64,000 bases of DNA from a virus: positions 77,878 to 141,877 of the IMG/VR virus record IMGVR_UViG_3300005542_000007. The stretch is one strand, 5' to 3'. Below the pieces are notes generated by a model. That model was not told the origin of the DNA, did no database searches, and saw only the letters and a list, made by a program, of their open reading frames with translations. The translations under genes and the position numbers were made by a program. Below are positions 23,959 to 55,866 of this stretch, piece after piece (the stretch's first letter is position 1; each line of letters opens with the position of its first letter).

Positions 23959-24131
23959 GCTTAAATGAATATCAAAAGAAACCCACACTTACCGCAGACG
24001 GTCTTCCATGGGTACAGCAATGTTTATATTGTGGCACGTCTGTAAATTTTATTAAGGACCCGAAGAGCAGTTGGCTTAGGGTAGGGGAATTTGTTCGCCA
24101 TAAAAAATGCGATCCTCCCCCAGCGAAGTGA
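23955..24131 (+). CDS. Small Cys-containing hypothetical protein (58 aa)
   Basis: GGAGG RBS, GTGA overlaps at both ends. Confidence 0.55.
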   Translation: MSLNEYQKKPTLTADGLPWVQQCLYCGTSVNFIKDPKSSWLRVGEFVRHKKCDPPPAK

Positions 24132-24322
24132 AATACAAAGATTCAGATATTTGTGTTTGTGGCCACCGCTTTGACGACCACGATTGTCACACGGATGGAT
24201 ATTGTTTGGAATGTCTATTCTCCGATGGTATTTATGGAGATGGCGTTGATGAATGTCAAGGTTTTAAGTTGGATAATTTAAAATACGTTGAAGACAAAGC
24301 GAAGAAAAGAAAGTTGCTATGA
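24128..24322 (+). CDS. DNL-tail zinc-finger microprotein 1
   Basis: CVCGH...H...C..C...C, ending DNLKYVEDKAKKRKLL. Confidence 0.75.
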   Translation: MKYKDSDICVCGHRFDDHDCHTDGYCLECLFSDGIYGDGVDECQGFKLDNLKYVEDKAKKRKLL

Positions 24323-24966
24323 AACCAGTTTTGGATAAAGGATTTGTGGAGTTGGTTGATTCAATGGGGTCGGACCTTTCCATTGTCAGAGCCGCCAGAG
24401 TATCTTACGGCAAAACTTCTTCAGATCCTGAGAAGGATAAGAAGCTGATTAAATTCCTTTTGGCTAACGACCATGGCACCCCCTTTGAGCACGTTGCCCT
24501 CACGTTCCATGTAAAAGCTCCAATCTTTGTTGTTCGACAGTGGATGAGACACAGGATTGGAAATTCCTTCAACGAGATCAGCGGTCGGTATACAGAGATG
24601 AAAGAAGAATTTTATATTCCAAAGCAGCTTCGTACCCAGGTGGGAAAGAATTACCAGTACGAAGCTTTGATGGATAGTGTGAATTCTATTGAGAAGATTG
24701 AAGCTCATTACGAAGACACATTCAAATTATATAAGGAGCTTCTAGAATTGGGTGTGGCCAAAGAGCAAGCTCGTGCTATCCTTCCCTTGGGGCTCTATAC
24801 AGAATTTTATTGGACTGTGAATGCCCGTTCTTTGATGCACTTTATATCTTTGCGTCTTGATCCTCATGCCCAGGAAGAGATTAGAGATTACGCTGTCGCT
24901 TTGCTCGAATATTTTAAAGAGGTTCTGCCTTGGACAGCAGAAGCATTTTTGGAGAAGAATAAGTGA
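24319..24966 (+). CDS. thyX: Flavin-dependent thymidylate synthase
   Basis: AARVS, H.TPFE, RQWMRHR..SFNE.S.RY, EQAR..LP, NARSL, AQ.EIR. Confidence 0.95.
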   Translation: MKPVLDKGFVELVDSMGSDLSIVRAARVSYGKTSSDPEKDKKLIKFLLANDHGTPFEHVALTFHVKAPIFVVRQWMRHRIGNSFNEISGRYTEMKEEFYIPKQLRTQVGKNYQYEALMDSVNSIEKIEAHYEDTFKLYKELLELGVAKEQARAILPLGLYTEFYWTVNARSLMHFISLRLDPHAQEEIRDYAVALLEYFKEVLPWTAEAFLEKNK

Positions 24967-25193
24967 TGGAACTTCTGTGCAAATGTGGACACAGAGATAC
25001 AATGCATTCTACATTAGAAGATGCACTTAAGTACCGCCAGAATATTGGTAGGTTATGCACTGAATATGCAGACTATCCTAATTACGATGCTCCTTATTTA
25101 CACGCAACAGAAGAAATTTGTATATGTGATAACTTTATAGCAGATAATTTATTGTCGATTGAACGAGAAGTAAAGAAGAGAAATTTGGTATGA
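24963..25193 (+). CDS. DNL-tail microprotein 2
   Basis: CKCGH...CIC, ending DNLLSIEREVKKRNLV. Confidence 0.75.
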   Translation: MMELLCKCGHRDTMHSTLEDALKYRQNIGRLCTEYADYPNYDAPYLHATEEICICDNFIADNLLSIEREVKKRNLV

Positions 25194-25378
25194 TGTGTTG
25201 GCGATGTGGGCATCAAAAGAGAGGACACGAAGCAGAACCAATAACTGAGTATAAGGAAGTATGTTGGGATTGTTGGTTTGATAAAGATACACTTGAAAAA
25301 CGTTTAAAAGCTTGGTATAAATTTGAAGATAACTTGAGTTATATAGAACGCAAAGCTAAGGAAAAGAAACTGATTTGA
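25190..25378 (+). CDS. DNL-tail microprotein 3
   Basis: CWRCGH...CWDC, ending DNLSYIERKAKEKKLI. Confidence 0.75.
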   Translation: MMCWRCGHQKRGHEAEPITEYKEVCWDCWFDKDTLEKRLKAWYKFEDNLSYIERKAKEKKLI

Positions 25379-25387
25379 GATTCATTC

Positions 25388-25459
25388 GCTCTCATGGTGT
25401 AACGGTTAGCACGGTACCCTGTCAAGGTATTAGCACGAGTTCGATTCTCGTTGGGAGCG
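25388..25459 (+). tRNA. tRNA-Asp(GTC)
   Basis: Acceptor GCTCTCA/TGGGAGC, anticodon loop CTGTCAA, TTCGA T-loop, CCA not encoded. Confidence 0.9.
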
Positions 25460-25473
25460 GAAGAATCTTTAGA

Positions 25474-25548
25474 TGCTCCATAGCACAATGGTAGTGCAAT
25501 CCCCTGTTAAGGGAAAGGTTCTAGGTTCGAATCCTAGTGGAGCAGCCA
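25474..25548 (+). tRNA. tRNA-Asn(GTT)
   Basis: Acceptor TGCTCCA/TGGAGCA, loop CTGTTAA, GGTTCGAATCC, CCA encoded. Confidence 0.92.
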
Positions 25549-25566
25549 AGGATTTGGAAGATGATA

Positions 25567-25639
25567 GCCCGGATAGCTCAACTGGTAGAGCAACCCCTTT
25601 GTAAGGGGAAGGTTGTAGGTTCGATTCCTATTCTGGGCT
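25567..25639 (+). tRNA. tRNA-Thr(TGT)
   Basis: Acceptor GCCCGGA/TCTGGGC, loop TTTGTAA, GGTTCGATTCC. Confidence 0.92.
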
Positions 25640-25649
25640 GTGATCTTCT

Positions 25650-27044
25650 ATGATTAAAATCAATATCGAAAACGTTAAGTCGAATCTCGAAGGGGATCTT
25701 GACCCAAAAGTAATTTCTGCTATATATAATAAATTGGCAGCAGAGGTTCAGGGTTCTTTTTATGCCCGAAAACAAAACCCCTGGTGGGACGGAAAGAAAC
25801 ATTTCTTCACTAAGGTTGGTAAGGCTTTTATGACAGGTTTGATTTGGATGGTGCGTGAAACTCTAGACAAACACCACGTTCAGTACGAATATAACGACCT
25901 TAGAATAAAGCCCAACCCAAAGAAAGAATTGCCTTTGCACAACGTTACCCTTCGTGCCTACCAGCAATCCATTGTTGATGAGGCAGTAAAGAAAGAGCGA
26001 GGTGTGATTCGTGTTTCAACAGGTGGCGGTAAGACAACCATCATTGCAGCTTTAGTTGGGAAACTTAATTTCACAACCCTCATCCTGATTCATCGCCAGG
26101 AAATTATGGCGCAGATTAAAGAGACACTTGAACGCATCCTTCAAATTCCCATTGGAACCGTCGGCGCTGGTACAGTCGATATTCAGCGTGTTACAATTGC
26201 TATGGTTCAAAGTGCCCATGAGTTGAAAGAGTTTCTACCCACTGTTGATGTTTTGATTGGAGATGAAGGACACCATGCTCCTGCTGAAACTTATTGGCAG
26301 GTTGCAGAAGCTTGTCCAAATGCGTATTACCGATATCTTTTTACTGGAAGTGACTGGCGGGAAGATAATATGGATATAATGTTGGATGGATTCGCCGCCA
26401 AGAAGTTCGTTGATATCAACGCTTCCAAGTTAATCGATGATGGTTGGTTGGTTCCACCAACAATTTACTTGTATGATTTTCAGCATGAACGTAAGAACCG
26501 CAAAGGGGTTCGTTATCCTAAAATTTACAATGAAGAGGTGACGAACAATTTAAAAAGGAACCAGCTTGTTGTGGACCTTGCGATGAGGTCGGTGGAGGCT
26601 GGTAAGAGTACATTAATTTTAATAAATTACATCGAACATGGGGAGAACCTTTTAACCCTTTTAAAAGCGGTTTACCCAGATATCGAGTTCATCCATGGGA
26701 GTACGGAAGTTGGAAAGAGACAGAAGGTGCTCCAGGAGTTCAAGGAAGGCACCAGGAAGCTCCTTTTAGCGTCAAATATCCTTGGAGAGGGTGTGGACAT
26801 CCCAAAGCTGGAAGTACTCATTACAGCAAGGGCTGAAGCCTCTACAATTGCAGCCTACCAAGCATTGGGAAGAACGCTCAGGCCGTCAGAGGGTAAAACC
26901 AAAGCAATTATAATTGATCTTTTCGATTCTGATTGTAAGTATTTAGAAAGTCATGCTTCAGCGCGTTTAAAAATCTACGCTTCGGAACCCAGGTATAAAA
27001 TTGTTCCAGTGAGTGATTTGAATGGGGTAAAATTCGATGCTTGA
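25650..27044 (+). CDS. Superfamily 2 DNA helicase (UvsW-like)
   Basis: LRAYQ, TGGGKT, DEGHH, EGVDIP, QALGRTLR. Confidence 0.9.
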   Translation: MIKINIENVKSNLEGDLDPKVISAIYNKLAAEVQGSFYARKQNPWWDGKKHFFTKVGKAFMTGLIWMVRETLDKHHVQYEYNDLRIKPNPKKELPLHNVTLRAYQQSIVDEAVKKERGVIRVSTGGGKTTIIAALVGKLNFTTLILIHRQEIMAQIKETLERILQIPIGTVGAGTVDIQRVTIAMVQSAHELKEFLPTVDVLIGDEGHHAPAETYWQVAEACPNAYYRYLFTGSDWREDNMDIMLDGFAAKKFVDINASKLIDDGWLVPPTIYLYDFQHERKNRKGVRYPKIYNEEVTNNLKRNQLVVDLAMRSVEAGKSTLILINYIEHGENLLTLLKAVYPDIEFIHGSTEVGKRQKVLQEFKEGTRKLLLASNILGEGVDIPKLEVLITARAEASTIAAYQALGRTLRPSEGKTKAIIIDLFDSDCKYLESHASARLKIYASEPRYKIVPVSDLNGVKFDA

Positions 27045-27396
27045 TCCAAAAGATGTGGAGAGTGTAGTAAATAAATCTGATATGGTTTTGGATGTTTTAA
27101 ATAAGCGTAGCAAAGTGGTTTTTAAAGTTCCTCTGGTAAGAATCAGAGTAGCTTTTTTTGGGTACCAATATGTTTGGGGAGAACTGAATCGAGCTAAACT
27201 GACATCCGAACTTTTGGATTTGGGATTCGACAATCTTACCCTTACTTTAATTATTGAAGGTATTATTCATTTAAAAAGAAAAGTAACACAATGGAAGGAA
27301 AGTCCCAAACGTATAACCGATCCTCTTGAATTGGCAAGAATGGAAACACAAGTAAAAAAGCGTGTTCGTTTTAATACCGCTAGAGGTAAATTTTAA
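27037..27396 (+). CDS. Hypothetical protein
   Basis: Overlapping ORF in the operon. Confidence 0.55.
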   Translation: MLDPKDVESVVNKSDMVLDVLNKRSKVVFKVPLVRIRVAFFGYQYVWGELNRAKLTSELLDLGFDNLTLTLIIEGIIHLKRKVTQWKESPKRITDPLELARMETQVKKRVRFNTARGKF

Positions 27397-27581
27397 TGGT
27401 TGAGTATTGCACCTGTGGGCATACGAAAGAATGCCACGCAATACTTCATGGTCCTCACGGTATTAAGAATTTGGCGTTGTGTTTAAACTGTGTAAATAAA
27501 AATGAGATCGCCTCCCATTCTTTTAAACTTGACAATCTTAAATTAATCGAAGACTTAGCCAAAGAGAAAGGATTAGTATGA
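27396..27581 (+). CDS. DNL-tail microprotein 4
   Basis: CTCGH...H...CLNC, ending DNLKLIEDLAKEKGLV. Confidence 0.78.
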   Translation: MVEYCTCGHTKECHAILHGPHGIKNLALCLNCVNKNEIASHSFKLDNLKLIEDLAKEKGLV

Positions 27582-28246: not shown

Positions 28247-28260
28247 CATCAAATTACCTC

Positions 28261-28289
28261 TTGACAAAATACCCTTTTCCTGCTAAACT
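28261..28289 (+). promoter_or_regulatory. Sigma70-type promoter
   Basis: TTGACA-17-TAAACT with an extended TG. Confidence 0.7.
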
Positions 28290-28294
28290 AAAGC

Positions 28295-28456
28295 GTGGAA
28301 GAAAAGCTCTGCGAATTCTGCAAGCATAAAGCAAGTGATCACATCCTGGCGAATGCTGGTGCTTGTGGTGATGCAGAATGTTGCGGAAGTGAATACGAAT
28401 TTTGCTATGAATGTGGAGAACGTTGCAGTGGCTTTGATTTAAAGTGGAGGTATTGA
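28295..28456 (+). CDS. Cys/His-rich microprotein related to the DNL family but lacking the tail
   Basis: MEEKLCEFCKHKASDH...CYEC...CSGFDLKWRY. Confidence 0.6.
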   Translation: MEEKLCEFCKHKASDHILANAGACGDAECCGSEYEFCYECGERCSGFDLKWRY

Positions 28457-29951: not shown

Positions 29952-29954
29952 AGA

Positions 29955-30278: not shown

Positions 30279-30286
30279 AATAACCC

Positions 30287-30315
30287 TTGACAAACGTAAA
30301 ATTATCTGCTAAACT
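30287..30315 (+). promoter_or_regulatory. Sigma70-type promoter
   Basis: TTGACA-17-TAAACT with an extended TG. Confidence 0.7.
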
Positions 30316-33898: not shown

Positions 33899-34303
33899 AT
33901 GGCTTCAAAAGAATATATGCGTAATTGGTACTTAAAAAATAGGGAAAGAAATTTGGAGAAGGCCAAAATTTATCGTCAATCTTATCCAGGGGCTCAACGA
34001 ATGAGAGAAAAACGTTTACGTGGGCAGACATTTATAAATGAAGCAAAAAATAAACCTTGTATGGATTGTGGTGTTCGTTATGCTTCTTGGATAATGCAGT
34101 TTGACCACAGAGATCCAACACAAAAGAGATTTACAATTTCATCTTCTACTTCCCGTTCCTTTGTAGATTTACAAATTGAAATGGATAAATGCGATGTTGT
34201 ATGTGCTAATTGTCATGCAGAAAGAACGCATAAATTAGGTAAATTGTTTAGACCAGGAAGACCAGTCGCGGAACGGAAATATACTAAAAGGAGTCCAAAG
34301 TGA
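33899..34303 (+). CDS. HNH endonuclease
   Basis: PCMDCG...MQFDHRDP..K...CDVVCANCH..RT. Confidence 0.85.
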   Translation: MASKEYMRNWYLKNRERNLEKAKIYRQSYPGAQRMREKRLRGQTFINEAKNKPCMDCGVRYASWIMQFDHRDPTQKRFTISSSTSRSFVDLQIEMDKCDVVCANCHAERTHKLGKLFRPGRPVAERKYTKRSPK

Positions 34304-34926
34304 ATATTATCCCCACTGTGGTAGAAAAAATGACCGGAGCGGGGTCAATGGTTTCCTACGACCTCCTTTCCCGTTTGATGCAAGATAGAATTTTATTCGT
34401 AGGTGGCAATCACGGAGCCATAAGTTTGGACGATGCTAATATCCTAATTTCGCAGCTTCTTTATTTGGATTCGATTGACCCAGGTAAGAAAATTGAAATG
34501 TACATCAATTCTCCAGGTGGGGAGGTTTCAGCGGGCCTTGCTATTCTGGATACAATGAATCACATCCAAAGTCCTATCACGACAATCTGTTTAGGAATGG
34601 CAATGTCTTTTGGGGCTGTTCTATTGAGTGCTGGGGAACCGGGAAAACGTTTTGCTCTTCCAAATGCCCGTATCATGATTCACCAACCATTGATTTCTGG
34701 AGGTGGGATATCGGGTCAGGCGACTGACATTGAAATTGAAGCAAAGGAAATGACTCATTGCAAAACATCCCTTACAAAAATCCTCGCAGCCAACTGCAAT
34801 CAGAAATACGAGAAGGTTTTGAAGGATTGCGAACGCAATTTTTATATGTCAGCAGAGGAAGCAAAAGAGTATGGGTTGATTGATAACGTGATTGTTCCGC
34901 ACAGGAAATTGGATAAACACGTTTAG
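34300..34926 (+). CDS. clpP: ATP-dependent Clp protease proteolytic subunit
   Basis: SRLMQDRI, YINSPGG, AMSFGA (catalytic Ser), IMIHQP, EAKEYGLID. Confidence 0.95.
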   Translation: MNIIPTVVEKMTGAGSMVSYDLLSRLMQDRILFVGGNHGAISLDDANILISQLLYLDSIDPGKKIEMYINSPGGEVSAGLAILDTMNHIQSPITTICLGMAMSFGAVLLSAGEPGKRFALPNARIMIHQPLISGGGISGQATDIEIEAKEMTHCKTSLTKILAANCNQKYEKVLKDCERNFYMSAEEAKEYGLIDNVIVPHRKLDKHV

Positions 34927-35090: not shown

Positions 35091-35279
35091 ATGAAAACGT
35101 TGCGTAAACCAGCCATACCTTGCATTTGTGGACACAGCCGGACATCTCATAAAGGTTGGGGACATTGGAAAGTATGTATGGACCCGCTTATTGATTTTGA
35201 AGAGTGTGAATGCGATAAATATGTTCCAGACAATCTCTCTTACATAGAGAAGCTTGCAAAAAAGAAAAAGCTAGTATGA
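35091..35279 (+). CDS. DNL-tail microprotein 5
   Basis: CICGH...H...C...CEC, ending DNLSYIEKLAKKKKLV. Confidence 0.78.
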   Translation: MKTLRKPAIPCICGHSRTSHKGWGHWKVCMDPLIDFEECECDKYVPDNLSYIEKLAKKKKLV

Positions 35280-37715: not shown

Positions 37716-37913
37716 ATGAACAAGCGTGTTGCTTACCTCTACATTCTCACAGTATTCTTTGTTGTGGGATTTTATCTGTTTGGTAAGGGTGAAGTATTTG
37801 GAATAGAAAGATACAAACACAGCAAAAATATGTATGGAGCCCTCAAAGCAGCTTATCGAATGGGATACGAAGATGCTAAAGCAGGGCGTTCTATGGACTG
37901 GGATGGGGAATAA
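37716..37913 (+). CDS. Small membrane protein
   Basis: N-terminal TM helix, coupled ORF. Confidence 0.5.
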   Translation: MNKRVAYLYILTVFFVVGFYLFGKGEVFGIERYKHSKNMYGALKAAYRMGYEDAKAGRSMDWDGE

Positions 37914-38836
37914 TGAAAGACCTTATTATGTCGGATGACATTCCTCCCAAACCCATAGGAATTACGAATGGGACTATTACGCTAATGGAAGATGCTTCAG
38001 GACTTGCTAGTAAATTGGTTGTTCAATATCATTACAGCCATAAAACTACTCCCAATCATTTTTTAAGTTTTCTCGTTAATAAGGACCAGGGCGCTTTACA
38101 GTTGGGGTATGGTATTCGTCCTGCTATGAAGCATACCATTTCCAAAGATATTGTAAAGGGTAACTATTGCGAGTTTGATAGGATGTGGTTAAGTGATGTG
38201 ATGCCAAAGAATAGTGAAAGCCAAGTTATCGCCTTGTTGTTGAGTTACTTAAAACAAGTACACCCGAGAATTAAATTCGTTATTACTTATGCGGATGAAA
38301 GTGTGGGTAATAAAGGTACAATTTATCAAGCTACCAATGCTATAGAACTTCCCAGTGTTCCAACGGATTTTTACTTGCTTCCTTCTGGTGAACGTATTCA
38401 TCCTGTAACAATGTGGCATAGGCACAAAACCAGAGCAAAAGCTTTTGTAGAGAAACAGTATCCCGGTATTAAACACATTAAAGGAACGTATAAACAACGA
38501 CGTTATTTATACATTCTTAATAACGGTTTGCGGAGAAAGTTTCAAGAGCGAAACGATGTGCTTCCAGCACATAAGGCGAAGTGCGATTCTTCGGCTCCGC
38601 TCCAATTTAAGCAAACTAAAAGTGACGTTATTTTTAAAGAGGTGTTTGATATGAAAAAATTCAATGAAGAATACCCAAAAGTGGTAGAAGGACTGCGGTT
38701 ATTTTTAGGCGAAATTTACCTTGCCTTGGAAGAGGGCAAAACCATTTCTAAGGATAATTTTGCCGAGGGTTGCAAAATGCATTTAGGAAACTTAAAACAG
38801 TTTATTAGCGACAATGAAACCCAACGCCCTAACTAA
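37913..38836 (+). CDS. Mom-family (GNAT-like) DNA adenine-modification enzyme; frame reads through an embedded tRNA and a probable second cistron starting at 38651
   Basis: VQYHYSHK, EFDRMWL.D..PKNSES, ITYADESVG.KGTIYQATN, RRYLYIL motifs. Confidence 0.82.
   Translation: MKDLIMSDDIPPKPIGITNGTITLMEDASGLASKLVVQYHYSHKTTPNHFLSFLVNKDQGALQLGYGIRPAMKHTISKDIVKGNYCEFDRMWLSDVMPKNSESQVIALLLSYLKQVHPRIKFVITYADESVGNKGTIYQATNAIELPSVPTDFYLLPSGERIHPVTMWHRHKTRAKAFVEKQYPGIKHIKGTYKQRRYLYILNNGLRRKFQERNDVLPAHKAKCDSSAPLQFKQTKSDVIFKEVFDMKKFNEEYPKVVEGLRLFLGEIYLALEEGKTISKDNFAEGCKMHLGNLKQFISDNETQRPN
38530..38604 (+). tRNA. Non-canonical tRNA-Gly(TCC) embedded in the Mom-like ORF
   Basis: Acceptor GCGGAGA/GCTCCGC plus T73 plus CCA. 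D stem GTTT/AAAC. Anticodon arm ATGTG-CTTCCAG-CACAT. T arm CGAAG-TGCGATT-CTTCG. Confidence 0.82.
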
Positions 38837-41146: not shown

Positions 41147-42538
41147 ATGCAAAATAAAGAACTCGAATATAATTTTCTGAAGCACGTTCTTACCGATCCC
41201 AAATGTGTCCTGAAGGTGCAGGAACGTGGAGTTGACGAGAGCTTCTTCGATATACCGACAGTCTCTAAGCTCTTTGGAATCACCATCCGGTATTTCCAAG
41301 CTTACAGCGTACTTCCAACCTCTGCCGATGTTGAGTTGGTCCTTTCTTCCAGCAAATATACAGCAAACTTAGGCGATGATTTTAAAAAACAAATCGCGGT
41401 CCTCTTCTCCGAAGTGTCAATCCTTTCCAATCCTCCAAATTTTGATCTTCTCCTCGACGAGTTGATTCAGTACCACAAAACTAATTTGTTCCAGCAATCC
41501 TTGTTTGCTGCTACTGAAGCTCTCACCAACAACAGTACGGATAAAGCGATTGAAGCGGTTAAGAAGTCGCTTGCCTCCATCGATAAGATTTTTGCTTCCA
41601 ATTATGATTTGAACGGCAGCATCGAAGATAATGCGAAACCCCTTTGGGACCAGTTTTTGGATGCAGAGCAACATCCAGAAAAGTACAAGGGAATCAACGT
41701 AGGGTTTGATGGATTTGACAAACTCACTGGTGGATTGGTTGGTGGGACAGTTACGTTAATTATCGGCGGATGGAAAAGTGCAAAATCCGTTCTCTCAATG
41801 AATATGGCGCACAACGTTGCGACAAGTGATTTTGCAACTAAGAGGGTTGGCAAGCGAGTGTTGTACCATGTTAACGAGGGGCGGTTCGAGTTGAACCAAG
41901 CTCGTCTTGCCTCCTGCGCCACTGGAATCAATTATACCAGATTGAGCAGAGCTTTGAGGGGCCGCGTTATCTTTACCCAGGCAGAAAGAGATTTGTACGA
42001 AAAGTATTTAAAGGGAGATGAATTTAAAGAGTTGCGTCACAACCTCATTATCGATTCAGCACCTCCTATCGTTAGTTCCGCTCGTTATGTTGGAGCAAAG
42101 ATTAAAGAACACAAACCAGAGTTTGTTATCATCGACTACTTGGGGCTTTTAGGAACGGACCAGAGAGTGAAAGACGATAATGAGAAATTGGGTAAAGTGT
42201 CATCTGAAATTGTAGGGTTGGCAATTGAACACAACGTACCTATTATCCTGATTGCTCACGTCAATAGGAAAGCGAAACAAGCAGCCGATAAAAATAACGA
42301 GGATTATGACAGCGAAGATATGGGATTGAGTATCGAACCGATTAAGAACGTGGACGCTGTTGTATCCTGGAGGATTGAAGACCCGGAACAATTTAAGCAA
42401 ACACACAAGGGCATTGGAACGTTGGCAATTAGAGATGCCAGGAACGTAGAGACAGGAACGTGTCAGCTTTTGGTTGACACAAATTCGATGAGTATAAAGA
42501 ACATCATTTATGGTGGGATGGGTGGGCAGCAGCCGTGA
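41147..42538 (+). CDS. dnaB: DnaB-like replicative helicase
   Basis: GF..FDKLTGGL..G, atypical Walker A (GGWKSAKS), IIDYL, IAHVNR. Confidence 0.82.
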   Translation: MQNKELEYNFLKHVLTDPKCVLKVQERGVDESFFDIPTVSKLFGITIRYFQAYSVLPTSADVELVLSSSKYTANLGDDFKKQIAVLFSEVSILSNPPNFDLLLDELIQYHKTNLFQQSLFAATEALTNNSTDKAIEAVKKSLASIDKIFASNYDLNGSIEDNAKPLWDQFLDAEQHPEKYKGINVGFDGFDKLTGGLVGGTVTLIIGGWKSAKSVLSMNMAHNVATSDFATKRVGKRVLYHVNEGRFELNQARLASCATGINYTRLSRALRGRVIFTQAERDLYEKYLKGDEFKELRHNLIIDSAPPIVSSARYVGAKIKEHKPEFVIIDYLGLLGTDQRVKDDNEKLGKVSSEIVGLAIEHNVPIILIAHVNRKAKQAADKNNEDYDSEDMGLSIEPIKNVDAVVSWRIEDPEQFKQTHKGIGTLAIRDARNVETGTCQLLVDTNSMSIKNIIYGGMGGQQP

Positions 42539-42696
42539 GTGATAAAGACAGACCCTGCAAAAACTGTGGAAGACCTGGATATTACCCCGTACATGACATT
42601 GTAGGTAGATGCCCAAATCGCAATTTTTCATATTACGCACCAAAAGACAATCTCGATTACGTCGAGTGGCTTGCAGAGAAGAGAGGATTGGTATGA
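42535..42696 (+). CDS. DNL-tail microprotein 6 (53 aa, not in ORF track)
   Basis: CKNCG...H...C, ending DNLDYVEWLAEKRGLV. Confidence 0.75.
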   Translation: MSDKDRPCKNCGRPGYYPVHDIVGRCPNRNFSYYAPKDNLDYVEWLAEKRGLV

Positions 42697-42813
42697 AGTT
42701 TAAATGCCCAAAAGGACATGCAAGAATGGAGTTGGTTATGGGTGTTGCTGGTGCTTATTGTGGCATCTGTGATAGGATTTACAGTTTTGCACAATTAAAA
42801 AAGGATTAATAGA

Positions 42814-43605
42814 ATGAGTTTACTTAAACACATTTACAATTGGCGTAGGGATCTTCCAGACTGGAGAGATAAACGATACAGGGAGCATCGTTTGCTTGGA
42901 GCGTTGCCTCCCCCACCTCCAATAGTGGATTTGCGTCAACAATGCAGCCCAGTGGAAGACCAAGGACAATTGGGTTCCTGTACATCCTTTGCTTGGGCAG
43001 GAATGCTTGAGTTTCTTGAATTGCAAGCTTTAAATAATAAAGTTGCTTCTCCTGAAATCCTCACCCCAACTTATACGCCCTTCTCCCATCTTTTCATTTA
43101 TTACAATGAACGCTTTATTGATGGGGATGTGAGTCAAGATGGTGGATCACAATTGAGGACAGGAGCACAGGCTGTTGCAACTTATGGAGACTGTAGTGAA
43201 CCCACTTGGCCGTATCAGATTGAACAGGTATTTGTTAAACCCTCTGATGTTGCTTTTGCTGAAGCAGCTAATCACAAAATCAGCGTCTACTCCAGGCTGG
43301 AATCGGCTGAGGATTACAAAGCGTGTTTAGCTGAAGGATTTCCTTTTGTATTTGGTGCGACCTTATACGAGAGTTTTGAAAGTGGAGTTATAGCTTCCAC
43401 AGGTATTGTTCCAATGCCTTCAATGAACGAAAGTGACATTGGTGGACACGCAATCCTTTGTGTTGGGTACGATGAAACAAAGCAGCATTATATTGTGCGT
43501 AATTCTTGGGGAACGGGCTGGGGCGATAAAGGGTATTGTTACTTTCCAATGGAATATATGGAAAACCCAGACCTTTGTTCAGATATGTGGACGGCAAGGA
43601 AATAG
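42814..43605 (+). CDS. Papain-like C1 cysteine peptidase
   Basis: DQGQLGSC, GGHAILCVGY, RNSWG..WG..GY. Confidence 0.92.
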   Translation: MSLLKHIYNWRRDLPDWRDKRYREHRLLGALPPPPPIVDLRQQCSPVEDQGQLGSCTSFAWAGMLEFLELQALNNKVASPEILTPTYTPFSHLFIYYNERFIDGDVSQDGGSQLRTGAQAVATYGDCSEPTWPYQIEQVFVKPSDVAFAEAANHKISVYSRLESAEDYKACLAEGFPFVFGATLYESFESGVIASTGIVPMPSMNESDIGGHAILCVGYDETKQHYIVRNSWGTGWGDKGYCYFPMEYMENPDLCSDMWTARK

Positions 43606-43606
43606 A

Positions 43607-43804
43607 ATGGAAGATTGGAAACTTCCTTGCACTTGTAAGCACAATAAAAATGCCCACCGAGGATTTCGTAGTATATATGGAGAATTTCATCGTACAGGTT
43701 GTAGACACAAATATTCTGATTTTTCAAGTTGCATTTGTTTTGGATTCAAACTCGACAACCTCAAACTAATAGAAGACTTAGCGAAAGAAAAAGGTTTGGT
43801 ATGA
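43607..43804 (+). CDS. DNL-tail microprotein 7
   Basis: CTCKH...H...C...CIC, ending DNLKLIEDLAKEKGLV. Confidence 0.78.
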   Translation: MEDWKLPCTCKHNKNAHRGFRSIYGEFHRTGCRHKYSDFSSCICFGFKLDNLKLIEDLAKEKGLV

Positions 43805-43965
43805 CCGATTATTGCATGTGTGGGCACATGCAGTACAAACATCAAAAAGCTGAACGTTTTAACACAAATGGATTGTTTTATTGTTTTGATTGCGACTGTA
43901 TGAAGTACAAACTCGACAATCTAAGATTTATTGAAGACGAAGCGAAAGAACGAGGGCTTGTATGA
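43801..43965 (+). CDS. DNL-tail microprotein 8
   Basis: CMCGH...H...CFDCDC, ending DNLRFIEDEAKERGLV. Confidence 0.78.
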   Translation: MTDYCMCGHMQYKHQKAERFNTNGLFYCFDCDCMKYKLDNLRFIEDEAKERGLV

Positions 43966-44492: not shown

Positions 44493-44696
44493 ATGGAAGA
44501 ATTAGGTAGAAGAGATTGGGAACTTCCTTGTATTTGTGGGCATATAAATAAAGAGCATCGACATATGAACAGGGAAGCAGATCGATGGAAATATACAACT
44601 AAAGTTTGTTGGAGCAAGTATTGTATTTGCTTTGAATTCAAACTCGATAATCTCGCATATGTCGAGCAGGTAGCCAGAGCTAGAGGATTGGTATGA
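44493..44696 (+). CDS. DNL-tail microprotein 9
   Basis: CICGH...H...C...CIC, ending DNLAYVEQVARARGLV. Promoter TTGCAG-17-TATAGT at 44458-44486. Confidence 0.78.
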   Translation: MEELGRRDWELPCICGHINKEHRHMNREADRWKYTTKVCWSKYCICFEFKLDNLAYVEQVARARGLV

Positions 44697-47496: not shown

Positions 47497-47664
47497 ATGG
47501 AAGAGAAGTGCATTTGTAAGCATTTAAGAAGCAGCCATTGGTGGCATTACAAAGAAGACGGTAGAACGAAAAAGCCTTGCTTATCTTGGTGTCCTTGCAA
47601 AGGATTTGCTTTAGATAACTTGGAATATATTGAACGATTAGCCAAGGAGCATAATTTAATATGA
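47497..47664 (+). CDS. DNL-tail microprotein 10 (55 aa, not in ORF track)
   Basis: CICKH...H...C...CPC, ending DNLEYIERLAKEHNLI. Confidence 0.78.
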   Translation: MEEKCICKHLRSSHWWHYKEDGRTKKPCLSWCPCKGFALDNLEYIERLAKEHNLI

Positions 47665-48632: not shown

Positions 48633-48633
48633 C

Positions 48634-49965: not shown

Positions 49966-49974
49966 GGAGCTATC

Positions 49975-51372
49975 ATGGCAAGAACCCCACGACCACCAAA
50001 TACAACTTCTAACAATTTGGATATCCCCCTTCCCCCTAAATCCTCTGCTGATTTGACGGATGCAGATTGGAAGAGGGTTTTGAAGGAATCCAAATGGAAT
50101 GGTAATTACAACACGTTCGTTTACATGAATTATTTGGATGTGAAGAGCCCGGATGAAATTCAGTACGATGAGCACGAAGTGAGCGAAGCGTATAGCATTG
50201 TTCCTCGCCATTGTTTGGAAGAGTTTCTAAAGGCAGAAAAGTTTACAGTTGACCGTTTGGCTTGGGTTTTTGAAGATTCTACCTATAGCGTGGAATGGAG
50301 TTTGATTGAAATCGACTTAAACAAGAAAGTGAACAAGGTATTGAACGGCCAGTTTTACATTTCAAACGGCAAAGAGAAATACATCTTTGAATCGAAGGTG
50401 GGATACCACGATAATTATTTCTTCAAAATTATTAGCCGCAAGGATTCAAAGGTGAGTGGCAAGGACCTTCTTGAGAAGTTTTTAAAATATACAGAAGAGC
50501 ACAATTTTCTCAAGGGGAAAAAGATCGACCCACAGTGTAATTTTATCCGCCTCGACCACACGTATACCTGGGATGATATTATTTTGTCAGAAAAGCTTAA
50601 GACAGAAATTCGTCAGAACCTTTCCAACCTCATTGAACATCGCAGTATTTATCGGGACAACGGCTTGAAGGTTCGAAGGGGTTTGATTTTCTCAGGGCCT
50701 CCTGGGGTTGGTAAAACGAATCTGGTTAAAATTCTTTGTGCGACGATTGACTGGACATTGATTTGGATTTCCCCAAAACATCTGGAGAATCCAAGACACG
50801 TTTCAGGAATTATGCAGCTTGCCAAAGACCTCAGCCCGTCAGTTATTGTATTGGAAGATATCGACCTTTATGGTTCTTCACGAGAGATGAACGGCAACCC
50901 AACTGTGCTTGGCGAACTTATGAACCAGCTTGACGGCGTTGAAGGTTTGGTTGACATCATTACAATTGCCACAACCAACCGGGAAGAAGTATTGGAAAAA
51001 GCTCTCCTCGACCGCCCAGGTCGTTTTGACAAAGTGGTTAAGTTTGGATTACCAGAAACAGAAGAACGTTTAAAAATGCTTGAGCTTTTTGCTGCTACAA
51101 TTGGAAAAGATAAGAGTTTCACTTGGAAAGAACTCTCTGAGAAACCAACTGATGGAATGTCTGGAGCGCAGATACGTGAAGTAATTTCCCAAGGAGTAAT
51201 TCAGGCGGTAGATGACGGAAGTGTTGAGAAGGGAAAGATTGTTTTAAAGTACAAGCATTTAAAGGCAGCGATGAAAGCAATTAAGGGAAAAGACTTTTCT
51301 AGAATTGGTATCCAACCTACGAATAGCGGCCTTGGCAGCAAGTTCGATCTTGATAATCTTGATCGGTGGTAG
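49975..51372 (+). CDS. AAA+ ATPase
   Basis: GPPGVGKT, LEDID, LDG, TTN, ALLDRPGRFD. Confidence 0.9.
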   Translation: MARTPRPPNTTSNNLDIPLPPKSSADLTDADWKRVLKESKWNGNYNTFVYMNYLDVKSPDEIQYDEHEVSEAYSIVPRHCLEEFLKAEKFTVDRLAWVFEDSTYSVEWSLIEIDLNKKVNKVLNGQFYISNGKEKYIFESKVGYHDNYFFKIISRKDSKVSGKDLLEKFLKYTEEHNFLKGKKIDPQCNFIRLDHTYTWDDIILSEKLKTEIRQNLSNLIEHRSIYRDNGLKVRRGLIFSGPPGVGKTNLVKILCATIDWTLIWISPKHLENPRHVSGIMQLAKDLSPSVIVLEDIDLYGSSREMNGNPTVLGELMNQLDGVEGLVDIITIATTNREEVLEKALLDRPGRFDKVVKFGLPETEERLKMLELFAATIGKDKSFTWKELSEKPTDGMSGAQIREVISQGVIQAVDDGSVEKGKIVLKYKHLKAAMKAIKGKDFSRIGIQPTNSGLGSKFDLDNLDRW

Positions 51373-51376
51373 AAAA

Positions 51377-51550: not shown

Positions 51551-51615
51551 AAATATAATAAAATGTGGTATTATTGAGGCGTATTATACGACTGATATTA
51601 TAATTTTAAGGAGAA
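51546..51615 (+). promoter_or_regulatory. Repeated promoter-hairpin leader, copy 2
   Basis: Same 21-mer, CGTA-tta-TACG hairpin, TATTATAATTTTAAGGAGAA. Confidence 0.65.
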
Positions 51616-51621
51616 TAAAAT

Positions 51622-52269
51622 ATGAAGCACAAAAATTTAAAGAAATTTTGTAAAAAAGGGCACAACACTTTTGTTTGTGGTAGGAAGAAAAATGGAGAAT
51701 GTAAACAGTGCCATAGAGGTGACGTTAAACAATTACGGGATGAGATAAAACAGGGAAAAAGAACAAGTAAAATTAGAAAACGTTTTTGTGTTCATGGCCA
51801 CGATACATTTATTGTGGGAAGAGATGTTCATCAAACTTGCAATGAGTGTAAAAAGCAAATGGATAAAAAATATAGCCGTACAGAAAAAGGTATAAAAGTT
51901 AAGCGAAAAGGACGTTTGAAATATGCACGTTCCAGACATGGAAAAAAGGCTGTGCGAGAATATCAACGATCACCAAGAGGAAAAGTTGCTCACGCCATTG
52001 CTACAATTAAGTGTAGAACAAATCGTGGTCTTCGTGTAATACCGTGGACTGATTGGGATAGGATTAAAGAATTTGAATTAAATAAACCCAAAGGAATGAC
52101 AACCGATCATTTTATTCCTTTAAATAACAAAAAGGTTTGGGGACTTCACGTATCTTGGAATCTTCAATATTTAACTCCCTCTGAAAATTCTATAAAACAT
52201 AATCACGTTGATTTACTCGAAGCTTCTAAATGGTATGGGAAAATATTAAAAAAAGCAGGATTAAAGTAA
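51622..52269 (+). CDS. HNH endonuclease with two CxxGH zinc fingers
   Basis: TDHFIPL...V.GLHV.WNLQYL...EN..K.N. Confidence 0.82.
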   Translation: MKHKNLKKFCKKGHNTFVCGRKKNGECKQCHRGDVKQLRDEIKQGKRTSKIRKRFCVHGHDTFIVGRDVHQTCNECKKQMDKKYSRTEKGIKVKRKGRLKYARSRHGKKAVREYQRSPRGKVAHAIATIKCRTNRGLRVIPWTDWDRIKEFELNKPKGMTTDHFIPLNNKKVWGLHVSWNLQYLTPSENSIKHNHVDLLEASKWYGKILKKAGLK

Positions 52270-52270
52270 A

Positions 52271-53299
52271 ATGGCGATTAAAAATCTTCGATTGGAAAAT
52301 TTCCAATCACATAAAGATTCAACGTTTGAGTTTGACAAAGGACTTAACGTAATCGTAGGAAGTTCGAATCAGGGCAAAACTTCACTTGCCAGGGCTCTTT
52401 CCCTCGTCCTGTATAACACTTGGGACAAAAGTTGGACAAGGGTGGGTTCTGCTTTTTGCAAAATTACTTTGGTAATGGACAACGGAGTTACAATAATTCG
52501 TGAGAAGGGTGAGAAACAGAACAAATATATTTTACAAGTTCCAGGTCAGCCCTCCCAGGAATTTACCAACTTTGGAACTGAAGTGCCAGAAGCGGTGTCA
52601 AAGGTTTTGCACATTGGAAAGATTTCACTCGACAAAGACGATTCGCTTACGCTCAATTATGCAAGCCAATTAGAACCGTTGTTTTTATTTAACAGGAGTG
52701 GAAGCCAAAAGGCTAAGGTATTTGGCCGACTCTCAGGCGCTCATTATTTGGACCACGCACTCCGTAATTTAAATACGGAGAAAAAGCAAATCGGCACAGA
52801 GAAGAATTTAAAAGGTAAAGAGCTTGAAGACTTGAAGGTTCAACATGCCGCTTTGAGTGCCATTTCGGAGTGGCGTCCTAAAATTGAGGAGCTTGAAGCT
52901 AAATCCGCCGCTTTGGATGCCGCAAGGCAGAGACTGGATACCCTCCAATCTTTGTTTACACGCGCTCAGGACTGGAAACGGCGCTACACCTCAGAGATGG
53001 CGAGAGAAAGCGCGTTAGCCCAGGTTCCGGCCCTACAAATCGATTCTATTGAGTCTTCCGTACAACGATTAAAGGGGTTAAAACAGCTTTTTCAGCAACA
53101 TAGGGACATTTTGGACAAAGAAACAACATTAAACAGTATGAAAACACAGCTAGATATGCAATTTTGTGCAGATACTAACGAATACACCTATATTTTATCA
53201 ACAAACAAAGTGTGCCCAATCTGTTTTGGCGTTTTGGATGGAAAAAAGTTGGAAGAGATTAAAAATACGCTGATTGGAAAAGAAAAATGCTCTATTTAA
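52271..53299 (+). CDS. sbcC: SbcC/Rad50 N-terminal half
   Basis: LENFQSH, Walker A GSSNQGKTS, coiled coil, CPIC zinc hook. Confidence 0.85.
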   Translation: MAIKNLRLENFQSHKDSTFEFDKGLNVIVGSSNQGKTSLARALSLVLYNTWDKSWTRVGSAFCKITLVMDNGVTIIREKGEKQNKYILQVPGQPSQEFTNFGTEVPEAVSKVLHIGKISLDKDDSLTLNYASQLEPLFLFNRSGSQKAKVFGRLSGAHYLDHALRNLNTEKKQIGTEKNLKGKELEDLKVQHAALSAISEWRPKIEELEAKSAALDAARQRLDTLQSLFTRAQDWKRRYTSEMARESALAQVPALQIDSIESSVQRLKGLKQLFQQHRDILDKETTLNSMKTQLDMQFCADTNEYTYILSTNKVCPICFGVLDGKKLEEIKNTLIGKEKCSI

Positions 53300-53841
53300 T
53301 TATAATTTTACTCGCTGCTGCTCTAATTTATTTTTTGCCGAAGTATTTTCACATCACAACTAATTTCTCTTCCCAGCTTGCCAAGTATAAAGAGACAGAG
53401 TTGCAAAAGCAAATGGGCGAATATCACACAATGGCGAAAGCGGAAATTGAAAGGCGAATGCAGGAAAATGCTGAAGCGGCCAAGAAAGAAGCGTTGCTGA
53501 TGGTGGCAAAGTGGAAAGTGGAATACGAAGAAGCCACAAGGCAAGACGCCATTAACAAGTCACAGGCGATTATGATGGGTAAAACCCTCGAACACCTTAT
53601 ACCGTTTTTTCCAGAGTTTCATTGGAATCCAAGGGATGCTCGTTTCCTTGGGAGTCCGGTGGATTTGATTGTGTTCGATGGTTTGAGTGAAGGAAAACTG
53701 AAACAAATTGTATTTATTGAAATTAAAACGAACATTTCACAATTGAGTGAGCGAGAAAGACAAATCCGCGATGTTATTAACAGCGGGAAAGTAAAGTGGG
53801 AAGAATTACGACATTTTGTAACGGGGGTTGCGAAGCCGTGA
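53287..53841 (+). CDS. Membrane-anchored Holliday-junction-resolvase-like PD-(D/E)XK nuclease
   Basis: E.LIPF.P.F...P.DARFLGSPVDLIVFDG...FIEIKT..SQLS.RE. Confidence 0.8.
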   Translation: MLYLIIILLAAALIYFLPKYFHITTNFSSQLAKYKETELQKQMGEYHTMAKAEIERRMQENAEAAKKEALLMVAKWKVEYEEATRQDAINKSQAIMMGKTLEHLIPFFPEFHWNPRDARFLGSPVDLIVFDGLSEGKLKQIVFIEIKTNISQLSERERQIRDVINSGKVKWEELRHFVTGVAKP

Positions 53842-54113
53842 AACTTCGATTTTTAATTTATGGAAGTTTGTTGTTTATTACTTTGGCGTTGCCTGTTGTT
53901 TACAAAAGTATGGAAGCGAAAATACAAAAGCAGGAAATGGCAATACGAGCGCAGAAAAAGAATTGGTTGTACGTTATGGCGGAGGCAGAATTTTGTTTAA
54001 CACGCAGTGCTAAAAATTTGGGTGCTTGGAAGTACCATTTTAACAAAGCTTTGGACTACTCTATTTTATTTTTAGAGATGGCACAGGAAGACATCGACAA
54101 TTTAACAAAATGA
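53838..54113 (+). CDS. Membrane-anchored hypothetical protein
   Basis: N-terminal TM segment, coupled ORF. Confidence 0.5.
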   Translation: MKLRFLIYGSLLFITLALPVVYKSMEAKIQKQEMAIRAQKKNWLYVMAEAEFCLTRSAKNLGAWKYHFNKALDYSILFLEMAQEDIDNLTK

Positions 54114-55060
54114 AATTCCTTTTCTTTACTGACAGTCACCTCCGAGATTCACGTCCTCGAAATCGTATTGATGATTTTTATAAAAACCAGTTTGAGGAAC
54201 TCGGGGAATTGGCGAATTTGGTTTTGGAATACGACATTGATGTTGTACTTTGTGGTGGGGACCTGTTGCACGTTCCCAAACCCTCCCATGAGTTGGTAAG
54301 GGATTTGATTGGCTGGGCAAAATACATTAACGTGCCAATCTATTCAGTTGTCGGCAATCACGATGTCCAAGGGTATCAGATGAAAACAATTGGCGCAAAC
54401 GGCATCGGTGTGTTGTTTGAGTCCGAAGCTTTCCATGAATTGACAGAGAAGGTGTTTGAAGAAGAGAAAATCGTAATTCGCGGGATTCATGCGAAGGTGC
54501 AGGAAGATGGAAAAGGGTATTTCTTCAATCCCACACAAACCGATTATTCTGGGTACACAAGAATTATCGTTTCACACAACTACGTAATTCCCGCTGATAG
54601 TATGATGTTCGATTTTATACACCCAAGAGATATTGTGACAAACGCCAATTTGGTGCTTTTAGGGCACTACCACCAGCCTTTCGAATACCAAAAAGGCAAC
54701 ACAAATTTTGTAACGAGATTCATTAATCCAGGAGCTTTGGCTCGTTGGGGAATTGATGAGAAGGACAGAATCCCAACGGTTCTGTTAATTGAAATTGAAA
54801 AGGGAAAGATTGACGTGAAGCATCTTCCGTTAGCTTGTGCCAAGAAAGCTGAAGAGCTTTTCGATTTGAGTAGGGTTGGATTGGAAAAAGAGAAAGAGGA
54901 CCAGTTAAAATCTTTCATGGAAAGTTTGGAAAATACGTCCTTTGAAACCAACGATATTGAAGCTCTGGTGTTGGCAGCGGGAAAGAATCAAGGGGTTGAC
55001 GAAAGAATCCTGAATAAGTCGCTTGAGAAGATTCGGGAAGCAAAAGAGGTGTTGAAGTGA
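54110..55060 (+). CDS. sbcD: SbcD/Mre11 nuclease
   Basis: TDSH, GGD, GNHD, SH, GHYH, NPGAL.R. Confidence 0.88.
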   Translation: MKFLFFTDSHLRDSRPRNRIDDFYKNQFEELGELANLVLEYDIDVVLCGGDLLHVPKPSHELVRDLIGWAKYINVPIYSVVGNHDVQGYQMKTIGANGIGVLFESEAFHELTEKVFEEEKIVIRGIHAKVQEDGKGYFFNPTQTDYSGYTRIIVSHNYVIPADSMMFDFIHPRDIVTNANLVLLGHYHQPFEYQKGNTNFVTRFINPGALARWGIDEKDRIPTVLLIEIEKGKIDVKHLPLACAKKAEELFDLSRVGLEKEKEDQLKSFMESLENTSFETNDIEALVLAAGKNQGVDERILNKSLEKIREAKEVLK

Positions 55061-55329
55061 ATAAAGTTTGTGCCTGTAATCTTCATAAAGAAAGGAAGTT
55101 TCTTAATTCCCTTAAAAAGAAACTCTCTGAAAACGAATTTAAAAAGCTGGAAGAATTCTTTGGAGAGAAGTGGCAACAAGCAGACGATGTGATTCTTTTA
55201 AAATGTAAGATGGATGAAACATGGCCGGGAACTAAATATCGAAAAGCTTTGGTTGATATGCACAGGATGGGGTGGTTTGACAATTTAACTTTTATAGAGT
55301 TGGCGAATAAAGCGAGGGAATTAGAATGA
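55057..55329 (+). CDS. DNL-tail protein 11 (divergent body)
   Basis: CAC..H N-terminus, ends DNLTFIELANKARELE with an ATGA overlap. Confidence 0.6.
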   Translation: MNKVCACNLHKERKFLNSLKKKLSENEFKKLEEFFGEKWQQADDVILLKCKMDETWPGTKYRKALVDMHRMGWFDNLTFIELANKARELE

Positions 55330-55580
55330 GCATTGAAGATACACTTTCATCGTTAAAGCGTAAAATCGATTCAGTCAACACAAAGAGAATTGAAAATGCT
55401 ACGAAGCTTCACGCTTTGGAAGAAGAGAAAGCAAACCTCTTAGCTGAATGTGGAAAGCTTGGAGTTGACCCGGCAGGATTGGAAAAGATTGTTGTGGATG
55501 AAGAAGAAAAGCTCAATACTGAAATTCAAAAGCTTCAAAATGAGATTGGACAAGTTTATGGGCAACTTGAACGTTATTAA
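55326..55580 (+). CDS. Coiled-coil protein (possible middle segment of the split SbcC)
   Basis: Heptad pattern, lies between the SbcC halves. Confidence 0.5.
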   Translation: MSIEDTLSSLKRKIDSVNTKRIENATKLHALEEEKANLLAECGKLGVDPAGLEKIVVDEEEKLNTEIQKLQNEIGQVYGQLERY

Positions 55581-55866
55581 ACCAGGAATGTGGATTAGGG
55601 ATGAGAAGTTCCCTAGTTTTATTTTGGATGCTAGAAACGACCAGTATTACCGTCTGTTTAACGATGGTTCTGGTGGTTGGAGATCCGAAATAAGTATAAA
55701 AGATCTTAATAGTTTAACAAATGAAAAATGTTTCTCTTTGAGAATTGCAGTGAAAAGGGCTTACAAGAAAAATCATATAAAGGACAATCTCGACTACATA
55801 GAATATTTGGCTTTTATTAAAAATTATGAACGCGCTAGAAAACTTAAAAAATCTGTACCACAATAA
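55558..55866 (+). CDS. Protein with a degenerate DNL motif (member 12)
   Basis: KDNLDYIEYLAFIK, overlapping the start of the SbcC C-half. Confidence 0.5.
   Translation: MGNLNVIKPGMWIRDEKFPSFILDARNDQYYRLFNDGSGGWRSEISIKDLNSLTNEKCFSLRIAVKRAYKKNHIKDNLDYIEYLAFIKNYERARKLKKSVPQ

Follow-up and report, generated by a model that had tools for sequence, protein, structure and literature searches.

Poxvirus ankyrin-repeat/PRANC (F-box-like) families plug into a host degradation machine. In bacteria, zinc occupancy reportedly acts as a gate on the degradation of MqsA by ClpXP. Two further cases involve ClpX. The transposase MuA of phage Mu carries a ClpX degron, C-motif-2, with the sequence CILEQNRRKKAI (PMC12723719), and SspB tethers itself to ClpX (PMC9963277). 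The subject here is a C-terminal tail of 16 residues that begins with D-N-L (the DNL tail), found on a family of small proteins in a 64,000-nucleotide stretch of viral DNA. This stretch (the window) comprises bases 77,878-141,877 of a single 141,877-bp virus record, IMGVR_UViG_3300005542_000007, which is ~74% complete according to CheckV. Coordinates below refer to the window unless marked as genome positions, which refer to the whole record. The DNL family is large and unannotated. Its phage proteins have in common a portable helix at the C-terminus, which also carries the translation signals of the next gene. A literature search found no described phage family of this kind, and the tail looks like a portable address or recognition tag of a type not known to have been described for phages.

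An initial annotation of the window had listed about twelve open reading frames (ORFs) of this family, and all twelve are present on the + strand where they had been placed. It had also claimed that eleven of them end exactly 16 residues from a DNL motif, with the consensus D-N-L-x-[YFL]-[IV]-E-x-x-A-x4-L-[VIL]-stop. Spacing and consensus hold together in ten; the ORF at 55057-55329 keeps the spacing only and its end is divergent. The degenerate copy proposed within 55558-55866 is borne out, its DNL lying 27 residues from the stop. Two start positions needed revision: 24128 is an internal GTG in an ORF that opens at ATG 24107, and 24963 is a GTG beside ATG 24966. Most members do carry the knuckle C-x(1,2)-C-x-H-x4-H (9 of 11). 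The copies are thus real, but the count was too low. A hidden Markov model (HMM) of the tail finds 30 strong copies (E<1e-7) and ~6 weak ones in the 141.9-kb record, all on the + strand, and about 22 of these lie outside the window, at genome 1-20 kb. The family is therefore about three times bigger than had been listed.

Chance does not account for the tail. The tripeptide DNL occurs 63 times in the six frames of the whole record. In 26 of these cases it stands exactly 16 codons before a stop, always on the + strand, where ~1.4 would be expected (binomial P ~3e-26). One of the 26 is a chance ORF, and the - strand has no such case. The DNL-tail feature is real and statistically overwhelming.

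The tail is the most conserved part of the family proteins, and it is the peptide that is conserved. Synonymous variation in the DNL codons had been noted from the start, and it extends further: D, N, E and A use every synonymous form, Leu uses all six codons, and third codon positions are free at tail D, N, L, [IV], E and A. The ORFs at 27396 and 43607 share their tail, as had been observed; they are identical over 19 residues with 10 synonymous differences in 57 nucleotides. Across 276 tail pairs the proportion of synonymous differences (pS) is 0.88 and that of nonsynonymous differences (pN) is 0.30, at a mean nucleotide identity of 58%. In the seven core tail codons the values are 0.95 and 0.085. 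Synonymous sites are saturated and the core peptide is nearly unchanged, so the earlier proposal that selection acts at the protein level is upheld.

A second constraint, one that the initial annotation did not mention, acts on the DNA of the last six tail codons. All 25 of the 16-residue tails stop at TGA, and this stop overlaps the next start as ATGA, GTGA or TTGA. Such stop-start overlap is found in 25/26 strong family genes vs 45/175 other + strand genes (P 2e-12). Codon choice at the end of the tail is also skewed. The final Val is GTA in 9/13 cases, GTG in 4/13 and GTT in none, whereas GTA makes up 29% of Val codons in the genome and GTT, the commonest, 49%. The final Ile is ATA in 6/8 cases compared with 18% in the genome, Gly13 is GGR in 12/13 and Arg12 is AGR or CGA in 11/11. 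In addition, the purine-rich codons for K-E-K-G occupy the expected Shine-Dalgarno site of the next gene. The last six codons thus encode a Shine-Dalgarno sequence and an overlapping start for the next gene, so that every tagged gene has its own coupling cassette. Judged from codon usage, tail residues 0-9 are constrained as peptide only, and residues 10-15 both as peptide and as a translational-coupling cassette.

Could the tail be a nucleic-acid element after all, such as a recombination site, a promoter or terminator or an RNA structure, with the peptide being incidental? The nucleotide-level constraint on the last six codons, which serves the ribosome-binding site and start of the next gene, would fit. 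However, tails with a mean nucleotide identity of 58%, saturated synonymous sites and an invariant peptide core do not, and neither does the use of all six Leu and all Ala codons. For residues 0-9 a nucleic-acid element is contradicted, and it is valid only for the last codons in their coupling function. As an account of the tail itself it is scarcely tenable.

What if the peptide acts in cis, while still in the ribosome? TnaC and SecM are regulatory arrest peptides. In this hypothetical scenario the tail in the exit tunnel would modulate both termination at UGA and the restart of translation at the AUG that overlaps it. The sensor would be a small metal-binding domain that folds at the mouth of the tunnel. 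The distance to the stop is constant, every stop is a UGA, with an overlap of the next start in 25/26 cases, and ~22 residues separate the last Cys pair from the C-terminus. The phage also encodes a stand-alone protein of 132 residues with an RF-1/GGQ domain (56415-56813, + strand; Pfam RF-1, E 9e-21), which by its sequence looks like an ArfB-like ribosome-rescue or release factor. However, UGA is a trivial consequence of the ATGA overlap, and the residues are arranged as in a folded amphipathic helix with caps. Tails that are extended or internally fused (see below) retain the core. A further difficulty is a body of ~105 residues, referred to here as the barrel type, with the tail LDNLSYIEALAALKKYD, likewise of 16 residues. 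It keeps DNLSYIEALA but has ..ALKKYD near the peptidyl-transferase centre, and the next start is 8 nucleotides upstream. A nascent-peptide function is therefore very improbable.

The proteins that carry the tail fall into different types. Twenty ORFs have the N-terminal knuckle C-x(1,2)-C-x-H-x4-H, a later Cys and a CxC pair 5-6 residues before DNL. The genome has 21 knuckle ORFs, and the tail is present on 20. The only one without it is a Cys-rich paralogue of 53 residues at 28295-28456 (+ strand), which has CEFCKHx4H and ends in ..CSGFDLKWRY. The remaining tagged ORFs have bodies unrelated to the knuckle, 75-145 residues long and including ones of 99, 100 and 145 residues. In the AlphaFold model of the knuckle member at 43801-43962, the tail forms a helix at residues 40-50 (predicted local distance difference test, pLDDT, ~91), the knuckle is fairly confident and the loop is poorly defined. 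The model of the 105-residue type is a small beta-barrel with a helical hairpin, the second helix of which is the DNL tail (mean pLDDT 82, tail 92-95). The helix is thus predicted with pLDDT >90 in two different bodies. The conserved residues can be placed on such a helix. The Asp would be its N-cap, with a hydrophobic staple between Leu -1 and Tyr +4. The middle (N-L-x-Y-I-E-x-L-A-K-x-K/R) would form a 12-residue amphipathic helix, Gly/Asn would be the C-cap with an A9-L14 contact typical of a Schellman motif, and the terminus would present a two-residue hydrophobic hook, Leu-Val/Ile.

Is the tail separable from the bodies? The best case is the tagged protein of 145 residues (genome 13306-13743). 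Its N-terminal half matches phrog_28969 (E 1.9e-10), the sole significant family-library match among the other tagged bodies, and the protein aligns with a 122-residue protein of E. coli Seuratvirus phages (E 4e-13; KS_A8, Seurat, slur01). The Seuratvirus homologue ends without a DNL motif. A pre-existing phage family therefore carries the tail only in the present lineage, which means that the tail is portable. Present sequence evidence indicates that it is a portable module on at least five body types, namely the knuckle and at least four unrelated ones. Longer proteins were also searched for the tail; none with a known domain was found and all matches were ≤146 residues, which is weak evidence.

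These observations bear on an alternative, that the helix is purely structural. It would then be the last element of each small fold, packed on the metal knuckle or on the preceding helix. The family would reflect ordinary paralogue expansion with no common partner, and the other bodies would have gained the tail through recombination between neighbours. Several points agree with this. Knuckle and tail occur together in 20/21 ORFs and in the top homologues, and the family genes are often in tandem. Capping residues (Asp as N-cap, Gly/Asn as C-cap, the A9-L14 contact) would account for several of the invariant positions, and in the barrel-type model the tail sits confidently within a helical hairpin. 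However, D-N-L-x-Y-I-E-x-L-A is kept on unrelated bodies, including the polar D, N and E that packing alone would not fix. Moreover, the homologous body works without a tail in the E. coli phages, and the tail is better conserved than the rest of the proteins. On balance a purely structural role is unlikely, although it has to be taken seriously.

The tail has relatives far beyond this record. A profile of 22 members was searched against 1.84 billion representative sequences (E≤1e-3, clusters at 50% identity) and found 1,289 clusters. The best 150 are all 51-117 residues long. Among the best 145 homologues, 139 end exactly 16 residues after the Asp. In this set D, N, L and A9 are conserved at 100%, E6, L14 and K/R12 at 99%, I/V15 at 96% and K10 at 86%. 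A few metagenomic homologues consist of two knuckle domains joined in frame and in tandem; of four such fusions, two retain an internal DNLxYLE away from the stop. The nearest clusters in the ESM Atlas are in tailed phages. A syntenic relative, represented by contigs of 175.5 kb and 151 kb from one sample, has a similarly large family with different copy numbers at the same places; for example, its peptidase-primase gap holds one small gene vs two in the window. A more distant contig shares the UDG-PolA polymerase; here four copies occur within 17.6 kb, and three show ATGA overlaps. When IMG/VR was scanned with a degenerate DNA pattern, the family was found in one 151-kb contig and one small contig. 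The same kind of pattern run against 596 Gb of prokaryote genomes gave only a short fragment in a contig of a metagenome-assembled genome and one chance match. The fragment is a 35%-GC stretch with DNL-tail ORFs at the end of an 83,354-bp contig (47% GC overall) in a Bathyarchaeota bin; this contig was probably assembled as a chimera or has a phage fragment attached to cellular DNA. The near-absence from prokaryote genomes means that there is no sign of prophages and that the family belongs to virulent phages.

The initial annotation did not recognise the family, and database comparisons agree. The knuckle-plus-tail proteins have no significant match in Pfam, PHROGs, NCBIfam or PADLOC. A resemblance to zf-DNL (PF05180; Tim15/Zim17/Hep1) comes to mind because there, too, a hydrophobic residue and D-N-L come a few residues behind a Cys pair. 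However, the ten members searched have no zf-DNL match at E≤1 and the whole record none in six frames at E≤10. In place of two CxxC pairs, the second of which precedes D(N/H)L in zf-DNL, the family has CxC pairs (..CxCGH.., ..CxCxxFxLDNL) with variable spacing between them. Its spacing differs from that of zf-DNL, and a 12-residue helix follows the DNL. A sequence-profile search of the PDB gave only a non-significant match in Cys pattern, to the ferredoxin-thioredoxin reductase catalytic chain (PF02943; profile-to-PDB E ~5). The Pfam model of that chain has no match in the genome at E≤10, and from its motif, CPC..CPC..CHC, the middle CxC pair is absent in the family consensus. Fold comparisons were no more productive. 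The knuckle model has no match in the PDB by Foldseek. In VIA its top 13 rows are RING, U-box or SP-RING domains, but at Z 2.0-2.5 and a root-mean-square deviation of 2.9-4.1 over 44-51 residues. In the atlas only unannotated viral clusters are found (a RING row has a TM score of 0.34), and in BFVD only weak rows to small actinophage proteins. For the barrel-type model, a fold search gave no match above Z 3.8.

The loops of the knuckle members had been described as variable. This is correct for some zinc-finger-like members, which have a hypervariable middle, but others have conserved loops. Orthologues of 44493-44696 hardly differ over the first 22 and the last 19 residues, but their middle is unalignable and variable in length. 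At the DNA level the flanks differ mainly at synonymous sites and the middle again cannot be aligned. In orthologues of 24966-25193, by contrast, the middle is well conserved, so hypervariability is limited to some members. The idea of a modular repertoire has to be qualified in the same way. It stands in so far as the tail is separable from the body and occurs on several body types, but not as a general statement about loops. A diversity-generating retroelement was considered as the source of the variation. It is unlikely because the record has no reverse transcriptase (no RVT_1 match), and the variable middle differs in length and is unalignable.

Another thought prompted by constant ends and a hypervariable, Cys-rich middle is that of precursors of ribosomally synthesised and post-translationally modified peptides (RiPPs). 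The constant parts would be enzyme recognition sequences and the middle the product. About 30 prochlorosin precursors are processed by one enzyme, and the many copies of the DNL family would fit such a scheme. There is a candidate peptidase between family genes, a papain-family (C1, weakly C39-like) cysteine peptidase at 42814-43605 (+ strand), which has the same place in the syntenic relative. However, the record, ~74% complete, has no match to radical-SAM (PF04055) or LanC-like (PF05147) enzymes. The Cys and His ligands are conserved in the manner of a metal site, the middle is conserved in some members, and the tail is also found on non-Cys proteins of 100-145 residues. RiPP-like precursors are thus highly improbable.

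The reading that we favour, tentatively and at slightly less than an even chance, is that the DNL tail is a portable C-terminal docking or recognition tag. A lineage of large virulent phages puts one constant tail on at least 30 small proteins in each genome, encoded in the early or replication regions. The majority are putative metal-binding mini-domains, CxCGHx4H...C...CxC, with a variable loop. The constant helix would be read by one highly conserved partner that is unable to co-vary, be it a central machine of the host or a conserved protein of the phage. The invariance of the tail, including its polar residues, its C-terminal position, the unrelated bodies and the presence of at least 30 copies argue for a function of the helix itself, and invariance over at least 1,289 clusters fits a partner that cannot change.

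What might read such a tag? By analogy, a Clp-type host unfoldase together with the phage ClpP would be the most likely reader, though even this identification is doubtful. A signal like that of MuA is possible because the phage encodes a ClpP (34300-34926, + strand; Pfam CLP_protease, E 4.6e-69), which is to be taken as context only. In this case the tail would act like the C-terminal ClpX signal of MuA. It would either time the removal of the tagged proteins or tether them and their bound cargo to the protease. The tail resembles such a degron in being at the extreme C-terminus (139/145 homologues, 25/26 strong genomic copies) and in having a basic run followed by an aliphatic free end (K10, K/R12, L14, I/V15). 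A ClpX- or ClpA-type ATPase was looked for in the ~74% complete record and not found. A more far-reaching version is a phage protein-addressing code, in which one invariant helix would deliver a fast-evolving repertoire of mini-binders stabilised by metal, along with other small effectors, to one common machine. This would most plausibly be a Clp protease built around the phage ClpP, and host proteins bound by the loops would be removed. As a whole, this version is improbable.

A different candidate machine is encoded between RecA and the SbcCD-like genes. This is an AAA ATPase (49975-51372, + strand) whose ATPase domain is nearest to the D2 domains of Cdc48/VCP/VAT/AFG2 (E ~1e-41) and is preceded by an N-domain of 195 residues. 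A complex prediction of the N-domain (residues 1-200) with the member at 43801-43962 scored 0.00, but was run without controls and speaks neither for nor against binding. The ATPase has a conserved ..DRW end. Its C-terminal ..LDNLDRW was considered as a copy of the tail; it is not conserved in the relative and is therefore a coincidence.

Several observations do not sit well with a docking or degradation tag. Known ClpX degrons are unstructured, whereas the DNL tail is predicted to be a stable capped helix, and 16 conserved residues far exceed what a degron needs. The end of the tail is not always the end of the protein. Tails with 1-11 extra residues occur (+1 at genome 15651, +9 at genome 13322 and 21978, +11 at window 55866), and the in-frame tandem fusions retain an internal DNLxYLE. 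A free carboxylate right after the tail is therefore not always needed. In addition, the knuckle body occurs without the tail in just 1/21 ORFs, and in this subfamily the helix may be no more than an element of the fold. Finally, the ATGA overlap, as opposed to recognition of the C-terminus, offers a partial explanation of where exactly the tail ends.

Where the tagged genes lie is informative about yet another possibility. About 33 of the 36 copies are in the early and replication regions, outside the structural block at genome 20-100 kb. Perhaps the tail is nevertheless an address for packaging, that is, a cargo-loading peptide for the procapsid interior or another phage-built assembly, with delivery alongside the DNA. 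Comparable roles are filled by the cargo-loading peptides of encapsulins, the encapsulation peptides of microcompartments and, in P22, the C-terminal helix-turn-helix with which the scaffolding protein binds the coat. Being a short, basic and amphipathic helix with which unrelated small proteins end, the tail would suit this role, and so would the helical hairpin that ends the barrel type. One weak copy (genome 21709-21978) directly follows a ClpP-like protease where the head module begins, and a strong one (genome 59745-59972) is among structural genes. The protease in question is a second ClpP homologue (genome 20218-20880, E 1e-26), which may be the prohead protease. However, nearly all copies are elsewhere, in translational coupling with genes for enzymes that include ThyX, primase and RecA. 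The large head proteins have no tail. Packaging is thus a distinctly improbable explanation.

Within the window, the first member (24107-24322, 71 residues; + strand, as are all that follow) has a CxCGHx4H knuckle and a tail ending in ..FKLDNLKYVEDKAKKRKLL, and its stop overlaps the start of ThyX as ATGA. Directly after ThyX is a member of 75 residues (24966-25193), which has an ATGA overlap with the next one (25190-25378, 62 residues, CWRCGH knuckle). After these two family genes, tRNA-Asp(GTC), tRNA-Asn(GTT) and tRNA-Thr(TGT) follow in a row at 25387-25640 (+ strand). That tRNA-Asp and tRNA-Asn stand beside genes whose tails have Asp and Asn as invariant polar residues is probably a coincidence. 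Further on, members of 61 residues (27396-27581) and 62 residues (35091-35279) have ATGA overlaps with a metallophosphoesterase gene and a phosphoribosyl-pyrophosphate synthetase-like gene, respectively. The member at 42535-42696 (53 residues) begins at the DnaB stop and has a variant knuckle, CKNCG, without the His pair. Its stop forms an ATGA overlap with a zinc-ribbon-like ORF of 38 residues (MKFKCPKGH..CGIC..; 42693-42809, + strand), whose ATG overlaps that stop. A longer reading of this ORF, of 66 residues from 42609, probably does not represent the true start.

After the papain-like peptidase there are two more members in tandem. The first (43607-43804, 65 residues) has an ATGA overlap with the second (43801-43965, 54 residues), which in turn overlaps the primase gene as ATGA and is the member chosen for folding. 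The member at 44493-44696 (67 residues) has the 16-residue DNL tail, and the one at 47497-47664 (55 residues) has an ATGA overlap with RecA. The last two are aberrant. The divergent member at 55057-55329 (90 residues) has a mostly non-Cys body with a knuckle remnant, CACNLH. Its tail, FDNLTFIELANKARELE, is at the 16-residue spacing with a divergent end (..ARELE), and an ATGA overlap is present. The degenerate copy (55558-55866) has DNLDYIEYLA followed by 17 more residues and a TAA stop, with no start overlap.

The surroundings of these genes are those of a phage with no close relative among deposited phage genomes. The record has a GC content of ~40% and almost all genes are on the + strand. 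One window protein is also on record on a 178,899-bp contig. Tail and baseplate genes at 1-23 kb are followed by a DNA-metabolism block. This contains ThyX, a helicase, the metallophosphoesterase, ClpP, NAD-salvage genes, a Mom-family DNA-modification gene (37913-38836, + strand; Pfam Mom, E 2e-40) and an MFS/BT1 transporter. It also includes DnaB, the papain-like peptidase, primase, RecA and the Cdc48/VAT-like AAA ATPase, and further the SbcCD-like genes, the RF-1-domain protein and the UDG-PolA polymerase.

Should the tail prove to be a docking or degradation tag common to these proteins, phages would be able to run a protein-addressing system of their own on dozens of effectors at a time. 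At least 1,289 unannotated clusters of hypothetical phage proteins would then be a single functional system. A short transferable tail peptide would also be a possible tool, for example as an inducible degron or a tether in the host. Since the last six codons serve the peptide as well as the ribosome-binding site and start of the next gene, each gene is a compact, self-contained and insertable cassette. This explains how such small genes are able to spread among essential ones while leaving the expression of these intact. Should the helix prove to be only structural, a large uncurated family of putative metal-binding mini-domains would still merit a database entry.

How, then, does the DNL tail compare with the described systems? 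It shares with TnaC and SecM a conserved peptide at a set distance from the codon in the ribosome, tied to expression of a downstream gene. However, those are single leader peptides without folded bodies, and the DNL core survives away from the stop. Encapsulin, microcompartment and P22 peptides are likewise amphipathic helices, short and terminal, which direct unrelated proteins to a single shell, but the DNL-tagged genes are in early and replication operons, away from capsid genes. The likeness to the MuA degron is closer. CILEQNRRKKAI and ..YIEKLAKKKKLV have in common a hydrophobic-hydrophobic-Glu, a basic run and an aliphatic-aliphatic-COOH end, and both are the C-terminal ends of phage proteins. 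The DNL tail differs in being longer, with an invariant D-N-L and a predicted stable capped helix, and in being on at least 30 proteins. With an adaptor of the SspB type it would share a variable cargo-binding body and a constant C-terminal docking peptide for one machine, although SspB is a single protein with a flexible linker and the DNL family is a multigene family without one. The poxvirus ankyrin-repeat/PRANC proteins belong to a eukaryotic virus and the ubiquitin system, and they are large proteins with no relation in sequence or fold. Nevertheless, they too form a viral multigene family with a variable recognition part, a constant C-terminal module and turnover in copy number. If the addressing-code reading is true, the DNL family would be their counterpart in bacterial viruses.

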